DNA from: Candidatus Saccharimonadota bacterium
GTDB taxonomy: Bacteria > Patescibacteriota > Saccharimonadia > Saccharimonadales > Saccharimonadaceae
DNA: 64,000 nt
Direction of reading: 5' to 3'
NCBI GenBank assembly: GCA_017406985.1
Contig: JAFQXL010000004.1
Span: forward strand, 59,708-123,707
Below are positions 1,640-5,695 of the stretch, in pieces. The notes under the pieces were generated by a model. It worked only from the letters and a program-made list of their open reading frames with translations. It was not told where the DNA came from and did not search any database. The translations under genes were made by a program, and so were the position numbers. Each line of letters begins with the position of its first letter. Position 1 is the first letter of the stretch.

Positions 1640-3343
1640 ATGGGTCGGGTGACTACAAAAACTAAACGGAGCGTGGATATTCTGACGATAGTCGGTGTCT
1701 TCTCCGGATTTTTATTATTAACATTATTAGCTGTGTATCTACACTCGCCGGTAATAAAAACCAGCGCGACAGACGAGGCTTCGAGCGCTTCGGTCTATGT
1801 CGAGCCGGTGGCGAGTATCTCGGTTGATCCAACGGTAAGTCTAGACATTACGCCGTCCGGAACGGGCGGAGTTGCCGATTCGGAACAACTCGACGTTAAA
1901 GTTATGACAAACGCGGAAGTCGGCTATGTTCTAAAGATGGCGGCGGAAGGAAGCTCGGCGGAAATGACCAGTCGAACTTCGAGCGATACAATTACTTCGG
2001 CCTTTACAGGCGGACTAACGCTCGAGAATATGTCGCCGAATACTTGGGGGTATTCGACTGATAACTCGACGTTCTATAAAGTTCCAGTAACTGGTAGCGA
2101 AGTTACGCTTGCTTCTCCAAGTAGCTCGACCGCGGAAGCATGGGAAACAACAACGATTTATTTCGGCGCGAAAGTCGACTCTTCGACCGAAGCCGGTTCT
2201 TATTCGAAGAACGTTGTCTTTACCGCAGTCGCGAACCAAAGACCACGAACTTTCTATGATATTACTTATATGCATGAGATGTCCTCGGCTATTTGTTCGA
2301 ACACCCCGACCGCTTCGAGCTATAGCGTAACTGCGACAACTCCAAACAATACCCTCGCAGAAGCGAAGACCGGAAACTATATCGCCCAGACGACTTTAAT
2401 CGACTATCGCGATATGAAGAGTTACCTTGTTCGTAAATATGCCAACGGCGAATGTTGGATGGCGCAGAACCTCGAGCATGATTTCTATTCGGCGGGAGAC
2501 TCTGTTGCGGACGGTTCTAGTAACACTGGAACTTATGCGACGACTTCAACCGGAATTAATACCTCCGCTAAGACAAACGCTGCTTCGACGCTCGGTTCGA
2601 ACAACTTTAGCAAATGGGTAAGTTATTCCGATATTAATAACGAAACCGCCTTTACGGCTTCTACGAACGCTTATGGCGCGGGTAAGTTTTACGCAACTCA
2701 GAACTTCTCTGGAAGCTCATATGGTTGGGCAGATAACGGAACCGACGGCGCGAGAAGCTATTCGACGAACGCGGCGGGCGCGGCGAACTATATTACAAAG
2801 ACTGGCTCGACGGCAGGTGACGGTTATTATACCTTCCAAGAATCGACAACTGGACAACCATATCAGAGAGTTGGTAACTATTATAACTTCGCAGCGGCGA
2901 AAGCCGGTTATCTCGGAACCGCAACTGGCGGTGATGACTCAAGCTCGACTTCGAGCACAACTGAAGTTCCTGATAACTCGATTTGTCCTCGTCACTGGAC
3001 TCTTCCGAAGAGCGGAACACACCTCGCTGGAACCGCTAAGTCCTTTGATAACCTAATTCGTCTTTACTATGGCGCAGACTGGACTAACGGCGCAAATAAT
3101 ACTACACTTTATAACTTCTTAAATGGAGCGCCGCTCGATTTCTGGCGTGCCGGCTTCTACTATCGTAGTTACGGTACGGTCGTCGATCGTACTACCAATG
3201 GCGGCTGGTGGTCTCGTAATGCCTCTTCTACCGCGGGTGCTAACGCCTTGGGTACCCGCATCAATAGTAATACGGGCTACGTCAATGCGCAGTATAGCTA
3301 CTACCGAGGCTACGGCTTGCCTATCCGTTGCGTAGTCCGCTAG
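1640..3343 (+). CDS. DGR target protein: membrane-anchored surface protein with Ig-like stalk and C-terminal Fib_succ_major/CLec-type domain
   Basis: N-terminal hydrophobic segment; 'CWMAQNL', 'GNYYNFAAA', 'ICPRHWTLP' and terminal 'PIRCV' motifs; C-terminus encoded by the VR; SD aaggagg. Confidence 0.85.
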   Translation: MGRVTTKTKRSVDILTIVGVFSGFLLLTLLAVYLHSPVIKTSATDEASSASVYVEPVASISVDPTVSLDITPSGTGGVADSEQLDVKVMTNAEVGYVLKMAAEGSSAEMTSRTSSDTITSAFTGGLTLENMSPNTWGYSTDNSTFYKVPVTGSEVTLASPSSSTAEAWETTTIYFGAKVDSSTEAGSYSKNVVFTAVANQRPRTFYDITYMHEMSSAICSNTPTASSYSVTATTPNNTLAEAKTGNYIAQTTLIDYRDMKSYLVRKYANGECWMAQNLEHDFYSAGDSVADGSSNTGTYATTSTGINTSAKTNAASTLGSNNFSKWVSYSDINNETAFTASTNAYGAGKFYATQNFSGSSYGWADNGTDGARSYSTNAAGAANYITKTGSTAGDGYYTFQESTTGQPYQRVGNYYNFAAAKAGYLGTATGGDDSSSTSSTTEVPDNSICPRHWTLPKSGTHLAGTAKSFDNLIRLYYGADWTNGANNTTLYNFLNGAPLDFWRAGFYYRSYGTVVDRTTNGGWWSRNASSTAGANALGTRINSNTGYVNAQYSYYRGYGLPIRCVVR

Positions 3344-3383
3344 GTCGTCTCCATCGTAGTTTTCCGCTACCAGCAGCTCGCGT
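3139..3383 (+). repeat. DGR variable repeat (VR), including 40 nt past the stop codon
   Basis: 245-bp ungapped match to the reverse complement of 5451-5695; 24 mismatches, 22 at TR adenines. Confidence 0.95.
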
Positions 3384-3432
3384 GAAAACGGAAAAAGGGC
3401 CGAAAAAAGTGGATTAAAACAGAGGAGATAAA

Positions 3433-4269
3433 ATGACGCTAGTCAACGAAAAGAAACCGGATAAGCTCGGAGCGAAACAAATGGTTCGCTCCGAGCGCGA
3501 GCGCTATCGGAAAATTAAAGCTACGATCTATGAAAAAGAACTGACGAACGATCAGCACGTATATGTTTATCGTTCGTCGAAAGAATGGTGGAAAGTCGGG
3601 GGAAACTCGGCGCTCTACTATAAATATATCCTCGGCCCGAGGCTGAAGGTTGCGATAAACCTGAAGCGGGACGAGGATCATTATTCTACCTTCAACTTTG
3701 GGGTTGTCTCGATTCGGGACATAAAAAGTTTCAAAGAGAGAATGAAGAAAGCGGGGATGGTTCCCGGGCCGGAAAACGATAACGCGATAAAGTTTTCGTT
3801 CAAGGAAAAAATTAGCCTCTCGACAATCGACGCAATCAAAGAAGATGTCGAGTTCCAGCACGAGCGGATAAACCGGCTGGTCGAGACGAGGAAGATTGCG
3901 CCGGACATGTTCGTCCTGATTCGCCAGTTCATGAGCGAATTTTGGCACTATTCAAAAAGATATAATAAATATGAAGCGCGGAAAACAATCACGAGCGAAG
4001 TTGTCGTCGAGATGATGAAAATGAAGCGGGCTTACGCCCACATGGCGAACGGAGATGTCGAAATTTTGGACGGGATGCTTGAGATAAAAAGTTGCGCCGA
4101 TTCCCTAATGTCGGATATTTCGTTTCTCGAAGAAGTAAAAGAAATGGGGTTCGACAAGGCGATGAAACTCAGTATGCACCTCGGAGATATAAAGCGAATT
4201 GTTAACCGCGAACTAAAAAAGGTGGTAAAAGAAAATGAGCGGATTAATTCTGACGGAAGATCGGAGTAG
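3433..4269 (+). CDS. DGR accessory protein: putative MutS-domain-I-like N-terminus fused to an Avd-like four-helix bundle
   Basis: Sits between VR and RT and overlaps the RT start by 35 nt; N-terminal pattern resembles MutS domain I; C-terminal ~115 aa helical and Avd-like (judged by eye). Confidence 0.65.
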   Translation: MTLVNEKKPDKLGAKQMVRSERERYRKIKATIYEKELTNDQHVYVYRSSKEWWKVGGNSALYYKYILGPRLKVAINLKRDEDHYSTFNFGVVSIRDIKSFKERMKKAGMVPGPENDNAIKFSFKEKISLSTIDAIKEDVEFQHERINRLVETRKIAPDMFVLIRQFMSEFWHYSKRYNKYEARKTITSEVVVEMMKMKRAYAHMANGDVEILDGMLEIKSCADSLMSDISFLEEVKEMGFDKAMKLSMHLGDIKRIVNRELKKVVKENERINSDGRSE

Positions 4270-5368
4270 GTTTTTTGACTATCTCGAACAGATGCTCTGG
4301 AGGGCGTATTATTGCGCGAGAAAGGGTAAGCGGACGACCGAAGACGAACATAAGTTCGAGATAAACGCGGCGGAGAATATACACCAGCTCGCAATCGACA
4401 TCATGACGCGAAACTATCGCCCGACGGTCGGGATTGCGTTTATAACGAAAGAGCCGGTAATCCGAGAGATTTTCGCGGCGCCGTTTCGAGACCGCGTCGT
4501 TCACCACGTTTTATTTAACGCCTGTAGCGGATGGTGGGACAGGCGACTTATCTATGATTCTTATTCTTGTCGCGTCAATAAGGGGACGCATTTCGGGATT
4601 AGGCGATTACACCACCACATGCAGGCTTGTTCGGAAAACTTTACTGTTCCCTGTACGATTGTTAAATTAGATATACAGGGATTTTTTATGAGCCTAGATA
4701 GAGAGAAGCTACTTAAACGGATTCTCTGGGGGCTAGACCAGCAGTTTAAAGGAAATTATAACGAGCTTTACCACGTTTTAAAGTTTCTTTGGACTTCGGT
4801 CATTATGGACGACCCGGTTCAAGGAGTTCGGCTCCGCGGAAAGCGGTCAGATTGGGACCAGTTACCGACAAATAAGAGCCTGTTTAATCAGCCGGAGGGC
4901 GTCGGAATCGTGATCGGGAACTTAACTTCTCAGCTCGCTTCGAATATTTTTCTCGACCCGCTCGATAGATATGTTATTTCGGATTTAGGGCTTAAACATT
5001 ATGGGCGATATGTCGACGATTTTTATTTTATCGTTCCGGATTCGGAGAAAGAATATGCGCTCGCTTGTATCGATACGATTTCGGAGTTTCTGTCGAAGCT
5101 CGGACTAACTCTACATCCGAAGAAACATTATATCCAGCCGATTTCACACGGCGTGCCGTTTCTCGGGGCGGTCGTTTATCCGCATTGTACCGTCCCTGGG
5201 AAGAGGATAAAGAAAGAGTTTATTCGGGCGGCTTATGAGTTTGCGTCGGGGTATGAGAGTATTGAGTCTTTGATTTCTTATATGGGAATGTTGTCGAATT
5301 TCCAGAGTGCGAAGTTCGAGAAAGAAGTGTTCGAGAGTTTAGGGTGGGATTATTATAGTAAGTTGTAG
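4235..5368 (+). CDS. DGR reverse transcriptase
   Basis: Motifs 'FRDRVVHH', 'KLDIQGFF', 'GIVIGNLTSQLASNIFL' and catalytic 'YGRYVDDF'; 377 aa with no maturase or endonuclease domain. Confidence 0.95.
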   Translation: MSGLILTEDRSRFFDYLEQMLWRAYYCARKGKRTTEDEHKFEINAAENIHQLAIDIMTRNYRPTVGIAFITKEPVIREIFAAPFRDRVVHHVLFNACSGWWDRRLIYDSYSCRVNKGTHFGIRRLHHHMQACSENFTVPCTIVKLDIQGFFMSLDREKLLKRILWGLDQQFKGNYNELYHVLKFLWTSVIMDDPVQGVRLRGKRSDWDQLPTNKSLFNQPEGVGIVIGNLTSQLASNIFLDPLDRYVISDLGLKHYGRYVDDFYFIVPDSEKEYALACIDTISEFLSKLGLTLHPKKHYIQPISHGVPFLGAVVYPHCTVPGKRIKKEFIRAAYEFASGYESIESLISYMGMLSNFQSAKFEKEVFESLGWDYYSKL

Positions 5369-5394: not shown

Positions 5395-5440
5395 AAAACG
5401 TAGTGCTTAAGTTTCTTGCGATTCTTAAACACTACGTTTT
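5395..5440. terminator. Bidirectional hairpin between the RT 3' end and the TR 3' end
   Basis: aaaacgtagtg-c-ttaag (5395-5411) pairs with cttaa-a-cactacgtttt (5424-5440); A/T runs on both sides. Confidence 0.65.
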
Positions 5441-5450
5441 ATTTTGTTTA

Positions 5451-5695
5451 ACGCGAGCTGCTGGTAGCGGAAAACTACGATGGAGACGACCTAGCGGACT
5501 ACGCAACGGATAGAAAAGCCGTTGCCTCGGTTGTTGCTATTCTGCGCATTGACGTTGCCCGTATTACTATTGATGTTGGTATTCAAGTTGTTAGCATTCG
5601 TGGTAGAAGAGGCATTACGAGACCACCAGTTGCCATTGGTAGTACGATTGATGACCGTACCGTTACTACGATTGTAGTTGCCGGCACGCCAGAAA
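5451..5695 (-). repeat. DGR template repeat (TR), inverted relative to VR and RT
   Basis: Minus-strand copy carries 20 in-frame AAY codons where VR has substituted codons. Confidence 0.95.

Follow-up and report, generated by a model that had tools for sequence, protein, structure and literature searches.

Which accessory protein serves the diversity-generating retroelement (DGR) in a 64,000-nucleotide stretch of a Candidatus Saccharimonadota genome (assembly GCA_017406985.1, contig JAFQXL010000004.1, positions 59,708 to 123,707; hereafter the window), and what would this protein contribute to retrohoming? The window contains a complete DGR, in which a target gene with the variable repeat (VR) is followed by an accessory gene, the reverse transcriptase (RT) gene and an inverted template repeat (TR). 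The accessory gene (3433..4269, + strand) is an open reading frame (ORF) for a polypeptide of 278 amino acids (pI 9.4) and is recognized by its ATG start, a GGAGA Shine-Dalgarno sequence upstream, its protein family, its AlphaFold2 (AF2) model and its synteny. Its last 35 nt overlap the RT ORF (4235..5368), so the gene arrangement given in a preliminary description of the window, which had been made from the sequence and its ORFs, was correct. The accessory gene is translationally coupled to the RT, and the juxtaposition of the two genes, mostly with overlap, is found in all 18 related loci examined. Searches with the 278-residue protein gave zero matches in Pfam, NCBIfam and PHROGs. We consider it likely that the protein is a natural fusion of a diverged Msl (MutS-like) domain, residues ~1-150, and an Avd domain, residues ~153-273, which acts as the sole, RT-coupled accessory protein of an Msl-type DGR and serves retrohoming.

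The assignment of the C-terminal half (residues 153-273; 3889..4251, + strand) as a true Avd is firmly supported. In the AF2 model, which was obtained with an alignment of 150 relatives (pLDDT 94.1, pTM 0.80), this half consists of helices 157-176, 180-205, 211-234 and 240-273, a four-helix bundle of which ~110 residues superpose on solved Avd structures. The best Foldseek matches in the PDB are 2rld, 2gsc, 4dwl and 8ube/8ub7, with target-normalised TM-scores of 0.80-0.86 and root-mean-square deviations of 1.7-2.1 Å; the Avd matches extend over about 108 columns at a probability of 1.00 and cover the targets fully. Among viral models (BFVD), entries annotated as 'Avd-like protein' head the list. 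Alignment of the C-half with 29 bAvd genes of candidate phyla radiation (CPR) genomes by hhalign gave a probability of 95.95% (E 5e-9, 109 columns), and a hidden Markov model (HMM) of the C-half of the family matches the very avd genes that are found by Pfam PF22296 (bAvd). The PF22296 model itself does not match the 278-residue protein and recognizes only one of the 150 relatives (E 1.8e-4), so that Avd membership rests on profile-profile and fold evidence. The helical pattern which the preliminary description had placed at residues ~155-265 was confirmed by the AF2 helices, Foldseek and hhalign for residues ~155-273.

The N-terminal half is the best-conserved region of the protein, with the lowest column entropy in the alignment of 150 sequences. 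It starts with a basic helix (residues 11-37; 3463..3543, + strand) that carries the near-invariant residues K29 and E36, is followed by N39, and aligns with the helix preceding strand 1 in Msl and MutS_I. Then follows the putative Msl/MutS-domain-I-like α/β core (residues 38-128; 3544..3816, + strand), delimited by the AF2 model, conservation and Msl profile comparison, with strands 42-47, 53-56, 91-94, 110-114 and 118-122 and helices 57-71 and 97-106. Residues 42-122 form a well-folded β2-α-β-α-β2 domain, and the pLDDT of the N-domain is about 97. The order of its secondary structure elements appears to be that of domain I of E. coli MutS. Two conserved elements stand out on the + strand: the motif W52-[WY]53-K54-x4-S59-A60 (3586-3612) and the invariant pair D80 and D82 (3670-3678). 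In the 150 sequences S59 and D80 are strictly invariant, K29, E36, N39, D82 and G90 are kept in at least 97%, position 52 is aromatic (W, F or Y) in 99%, and 90% have K or R at position 54. A connecting helix (residues 129-150; 3817..3882, + strand; AF2) lies between the two domains, and the pTM of 0.80 suggests that the N-domain has a defined arrangement relative to the Avd half.

The relationship of the N-domain to MutS domain I runs via the Msl proteins of viral DGRs. We gathered 80 IMG/VR loci with RTs that are 34-46% identical to the RT of the window and searched their 4,873 six-frame ORFs. The Msl family accounts for 51 of these ORFs, located just upstream of avd or the RT. Iterative searches (jackhmmer) from three Msl seeds converge on 121 MutS_I sequences; the first of these matches appear in iteration 2 with E 6e-8, from a profile that is still entirely viral, and with E 8e-7 at an inclusion threshold of 1e-5. 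The architecture of the loci varies: 31 have Msl only, 20 have Avd only, 11 encode a fused Msl-Avd protein of 261-312 amino acids (L119, L124, L127, L128, L131, L133, L134, L136, L137, L140 and L154), nine have Msl with a separate, overlapping avd gene, and nine have neither Msl nor Avd. An Msl-Avd fusion as such is recurrent and not unique to the window, with 11 cases among 80 related viral loci.

Profile comparisons connect the N-domain to these viral proteins. An alignment of 49 Msl sequences matched the N-domain with an hhalign probability of 76% (E 2.3e-5, 89 columns), Msl and N-domain together matched MutS_I with 67% (E 5e-5), and the fused viral Msl-Avd proteins aligned to the whole family of the accessory protein with 92.9% (E 3.6e-7), co-linearly over 231 columns that include both domains. 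A jackhmmer search started from the stand-alone Msl of locus L117 gains the N-domains, then MutS_I, and never Avd or C-half controls; these controls stayed at noise throughout the comparisons of Msl with the N-domain. Among the weak, sub-threshold matches of the N-domain HMM to the 4,873 viral ORFs, Msl accounts for nine of the top 10 and 13 of the top 20, always in one register and from at least five lineages. The register is also visible in a motif of identical spacing, which reads F-[YW]-[RQHK]-x4-S-A in Msl, W-[YW]-K-x4-S-A in the family described here and F-Y-E-x4-D-A in MutS.

The RT phylogeny points in the same direction. A tree of 92 sequences groups the Avd-only elements, among them the plasmid DGRs of Legionella and Segatella, in a single clade (support 100/99). 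All 16 Saccharibacteria RTs are united in one clade (100/100) inside the other clade (97/97), in which nearly all elements have Msl, and closest to them in the tree are the 11 viral elements with fused Msl-Avd, themselves a clade. Since the RT is nested in an Msl-bearing clade, an Msl-derived domain is to be expected at this position of the cassette, upstream of avd and the RT, as is the case for the N-domain. The transitive profile evidence, the common register of the motif, the phylogeny of the RT and the conserved position of the gene make an Msl/MutS-like identity probable, and we conclude that the N-domain is very probably a diverged Msl module, derived from MutS domain I.

Several results weigh against this assignment. 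The Pfam model MutS_I matches none of 57 isolated N-domains, hhalign of the N-domain with a MutS_I alignment gave 1.4-2.5%, which is no better than the Avd control, and two Foldseek runs of full-length models against the PDB had no MutS in the top 50, with lists saturated by helical matches of the Avd half. The link to Msl itself is moderate and alignment-dependent, with a differently seeded Msl alignment giving only 9.8% against the N-domain by hhalign and the N-halves of the 11 fused viral proteins alone only 1.7%. The bridge from the Msl of L117 depends on a borderline first inclusion (E 9.6e-4) and disappears when the threshold is tightened to 1e-4. The enrichment of Msl among the weak matches corresponds to a hypergeometric p of about 7e-18, a value exaggerated by the relatedness among the Msl ORFs. 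Furthermore, the N-half has a basic pI of 9.6, whereas the Msl proteins of Wu et al. (PMC5758913) are neutral, and the sister grouping with the viral fused clade receives little support (83/46), so that one as well as two Msl-Avd fusion events are conceivable. Searches of the PDB sequences with three profiles (hmmsearch) likewise returned no MutS, and nothing beyond coiled or helical background, for instance the GGA1 GAT domain. In the search for further Msl sequences, a MutS_I search for short proteins yielded only MutS fragments, and none of the tblastn matches of MutS_I in phage records was linked to a DGR. For the N-terminal half, scanning of the protein, 150 relatives and the 57 N-domains with Pfam, NCBIfam and PHROGs gave only YerC/TrpR (E 0.025) and phrog_1423 (E 0.06). 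Readings of the N-domain motifs as GIY-YIG, Toprim, PD-(D/E)xK or Alba-like were dropped, as the Pfam scans gave no support for them. The MutS domain I pattern that had been proposed for residues ~30-110 thus stands as a folded domain, at residues 42-122, and with a link to MutS through Msl only; direct detection of MutS_I failed. Since the preliminary description had made hits to both families in profile or structure searches its own test, and only the Avd similarity was found, its claim would have failed by that test; it survives through the Msl intermediates.

The same results could be explained if the C-half is an Avd and the N-domain an unrelated, lineage-specific α/β domain whose likeness to Msl and MutS_I is convergent or coincidental. 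Direct comparisons at noise and Foldseek lists without MutS are what such a domain would give; the support for the Msl link swings from 1.7% to 76% with the alignment used, and neither Msl nor MutS_I has an equivalent of D80-x-D82 or of the GG at positions 56-57. We nevertheless regard it as unlikely in view of the strong enrichment of Msl ORFs in one register, the identical spacing of the 9-residue motif, the co-linear full-length alignment with the fused viral proteins, the nesting of the RT in a clade where Msl is nearly always at this place, and controls that never cross-match. In related viral elements msl and avd are two distinct genes that overlap, which also raises the suspicion of an artefact, in which the two genes were merged by a frameshift or sequencing error, or of a decaying gene without function. 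The chance of this is negligible: an exhaustive profile search found 496 representative clusters, of which 409 at E < 1e-10, nearly all full length with 250-300 amino acids, which effectively refutes it. Moreover, the identical protein sequence occurs on 15 contigs from several samples, the model is continuous and of high confidence in both domains including the connecting helix, and a 30%-identical paralogue of the same architecture is present in the same genome. A third alternative, which takes up the shielding suggested in the preliminary description, accepts the Msl-like domain and concerns its role, as a decoy that sits on the mismatched cDNA:VR heteroduplex and shields it from repair by host MutS and MutL. 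A MutS head without the ATPase body would be a plausible competitive blocker, and for DGRs reconstituted in E. coli host-factor screens have reportedly been carried out, with mention of MutS (PMC12875486). However, MutS_V and the MutL DNA_mis_repair domain are found in none of 41 genomes of the host genus (controls were positive in 11 of 14 reference genomes), and MutS_I is absent from the genome, family and order of the host; it occurs in 31 of 151 sampled genomes of the phylum. With neither MutS nor MutL in the genus, canonical mismatch repair, from which the heteroduplex would have to be shielded, is missing, and shielding cannot explain the strong conservation of the N-domain here. This domain is still the most conserved part of the protein, and the Glu that reads mismatches in MutS is replaced by Lys. 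The decoy role is accordingly quite improbable, and blocking of host mismatch repair in general is an unlikely function of the N-domain in this host. A role intrinsic to the handling or installation of cDNA appears more likely.

For the Msl-Avd fusion, a mechanism can be sketched along these lines. By analogy to the Bordetella bAvd-bRT system, the Avd half would oligomerise, as a pentamer in the case of bAvd, and dock the RT and TR RNA for adenine-mutagenic cDNA synthesis. The fusion would tether one Msl-like domain per Avd subunit to the RT-Avd ribonucleoprotein (RNP). These domains may bind nucleic acid through their basic surface and the retained aromatic wedge W52, with Lys54 in place of Glu38, and the cDNA or the cDNA:VR heteroduplex would be the likely substrate. 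Since the aromatic wedge is kept and Glu is changed to Lys, general or structure-specific binding is expected, without the discrimination of mismatches that is typical of MutS. The Msl-like module would then most likely serve a step that is intrinsic to retrohoming, such as capture, stabilisation or hand-over of the substrate. More tentatively, Msl may be an integral subunit of the RT-Avd RNP instead of an accessory factor directed against repair. A ring of degenerate MutS heads, in each of which an aromatic wedge is combined with a basic residue at the place of Glu, would then capture the adenine-mutagenised cDNA or the cDNA:VR heteroduplex and help to install it in the target, although we consider this broader proposal rather doubtful. 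If it is true, the Saccharibacteria family would be natural evidence for it, since in this genus, which lacks MutS and MutL, the module is joined to Avd and is the most constrained part. Of the steps in mutagenic retrohoming, the installation of cDNA into the target is understood least.

The fusion also matters for the function of Msl in other elements. Natural fusion of Msl and Avd allows a 'Rosetta stone' argument, according to which Msl works physically with the Avd-RT complex. As the N-domain is the best-conserved part of the sole accessory protein in a genus without MutS and MutL, the role of Msl would exceed the antagonising of host mismatch repair. The fusion protein and the RT together offer a compact two-protein system for reconstitution, for which W52, K54, S59, D80 and D82 are candidate functional residues provided by the family. 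Because the Pfam models MutS_I and bAvd miss a family of several hundred clusters, surveys of DGRs probably undercount Msl-type elements.

The accessory protein belongs to a lineage-restricted family, which is an extreme, highly diverged form of known accessory classes that is missed by standard models. All 14 named genomic relatives are from Candidatus Saccharibacteria in gut samples. In whole-genome searches the N-domain was present in 22 of ~37 sampled genomes of the genus of the window, frequently in 2-3 copies, whereas the 185 other genera of the class had none. Among 401 sampled genomes of the phylum, only two yielded the full-length protein, the genome of the window and another genome of its genus. 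Stand-alone bAvd is absent from the genome and order of the host, compared to its presence in 67 of 151 sampled genomes of the phylum, and the fusion protein is the sole Avd-like and the sole MutS-like gene product of its genome type. Stand-alone homologs of the N-domain are almost absent, with three short fragments in a word-index search of 5.8 billion proteins. One rare stand-alone or truncated copy is a 144-residue open frame that matches the N-domain only (G495:C2:49006-49323, HMM positions 3-103). Some relatives of 350-430 amino acids (for example P0061, P0085 and P0056) bear an extra helix-turn-helix (HTH) domain at the N-terminus; of the 150 relatives, six have HTH_3 (best E 2.7e-8), and a few others match different HTH families.

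A second complete DGR cassette of like layout is located on another contig of the 731-kb genome (G000 contig C1:38738-43035; locus L107: 3239-7535). It encodes a target protein of 692 amino acids, a fused accessory protein of 270 amino acids and an RT of 370 amino acids, and has an inverted TR (180 nt, 88%). Its RT is 56% identical to that of the window and its accessory protein only 30%, which indicates a much higher rate of evolution for the accessory gene than for the RT gene.

In the cassette of the window, the target gene (1640..3343, + strand) encodes a protein of 567 amino acids with an N-terminal membrane or signal segment and a C-terminal variable region; a domain-model scan of the protein gave a weak match to Fib_succ_major, of the DUF1566-like lectin class. 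The VR forms the 3' end of this gene, and homologous targets are found upstream of the accessory gene in related loci. The VR (3139..3387, + strand) includes an identical 3' stretch that runs beyond the stop codon and was identified as an inverted repeat with the TR (5447..5695, - strand), which is inverted relative to both VR and RT. The two repeats are 249 nt each and 90% identical, with 22 of the 25 differences at adenines of the TR, as is characteristic of a DGR. Of the other three, two are adjacent, at 3319-3320, where the TR reads TT and the VR GC, and the third is a T of the TR that is G in the VR, at position 3384 on the margin of the repeat. The RT (4235..5368, + strand; 377 amino acids) matches RVT_1 (E 6e-12) and phrog_1423 (E 9e-75), carries the sequence IGNLTSQ, which conforms to the DGR motif [I/V/L]GxxxSQ, and clusters with DGR RTs in the tree. 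In the plasmid collection its closest relative is the RT of a Legionella pneumophila DGR, 39% identical (plasmid NZ_CP016869.1, 52915-63973, L100). Between the RT stop codon and the TR, a 17-bp stem with one mismatch, a 12-nt loop and flanking A- and T-runs (5395..5440, strand not assigned) can be read from the sequence, and looks like a bidirectional terminator. As the TR lies on the opposite strand downstream of the RT, its RNA must derive from a separate antisense transcript. An inverted TR 3' of the RT recurs across the Saccharibacteria lineage (L107, L086, L091, L095, L098 and L001). Concerning diversity of the VR, the sole other assembly that spans it has an identical copy. Four independent contigs from other assemblies of the same species (L103-L106) start where the VR ends on its 3' side, 48-79 nt before the accessory gene; such breaks are expected if the VR is heterogeneous in the populations concerned, and hint indirectly at activity of the DGR.

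Msl was named in 2018 for a separate small gene that is always found beside a separate avd gene, and three RTs with MutS_I-like tails were described in the same work (PMC5758913). It has also been reported in pilus DGRs of Bacteroides (bioRxiv 10.1101/2024.11.15.621889). Our literature search found no paper on an Msl-Avd fusion or on the Saccharibacteria fusion family. The 31 Msl-only viral loci mentioned above (L132-L190) have an Msl gene for ~190 amino acids upstream of the RT and no Avd detected by HMMs, and 28 of them fall in one RT clade. The published account, in which MSL-containing DGRs carry avd as well, does not agree with this; the clade could be an Avd-independent lineage, or its Avd could be too diverged, or too distant in the locus, for detection. 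In one viral locus (L188:3806-5104) an Msl-like segment (residues 4-59) is located at the N-terminus of an RT ORF of 433 amino acids, which is a third mode of joining Msl and RT, besides the Msl-Avd fusions and the published C-terminal MutS_I tails of RTs. Wu et al. (PMC5758913) list MSL for a Legionella DGR, and in the Legionella and Segatella plasmid DGRs compared here no Msl was found. The Legionella element L100 has an Avd of 113 amino acids, a DUF1566 target and no detectable Msl ORF.

Among known systems, the C-terminal half is closest to bAvd of Bordetella phage BPP-1 (4dwl; RNP structures 8ube/8ub7; PF22296), to which it is similar in fold, profile homology and basic charge; both are encoded immediately before the DGR RT and in coupling with it. 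The bAvd protein has about 110-130 amino acids, whereas the protein of the window has 278, with an N-terminal extension of ~150 residues. The structures 2rld and 2gsc are of related 'S23 ribosomal/four-helix-bundle' proteins that share the fold of the C-terminal ~120 residues. The N-domain resembles MutS domain I (PF01624) in having an aromatic residue in the register of the Phe36 wedge and a helix N-cap seven residues later. It differs in that W52 takes the place of Phe36 and Lys54 that of Glu38, so that the best alignments read W52-[WY]53-K54 instead of the Phe-X-Glu motif. The connector, core and clamp domains of MutS and its ATPase (MutS_V) are absent from the 278-residue fusion protein. 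To Msl ('Architecture D' in PMC5758913; 10.1101/2024.11.15.621889) the N-domain is linked by the same position in the cassette, an RT of one clade and the pattern aromatic-aromatic-basic-x4-S-A. Whereas Msl is described as the product of a separate small gene, with neutral pI and beside a separate avd, the domain is here fused, basic and far more diverged, and the fusion family has its own invariant residues D80, D82, N39, E36 and K29. Finally, the fused viral Msl-Avd proteins have the same domain order, a similar size and the same position just upstream of the RT; they are about 11% identical to the protein of the window, and their N-halves are readily recognised as Msl, in contrast to the N-half of the Saccharibacteria family.

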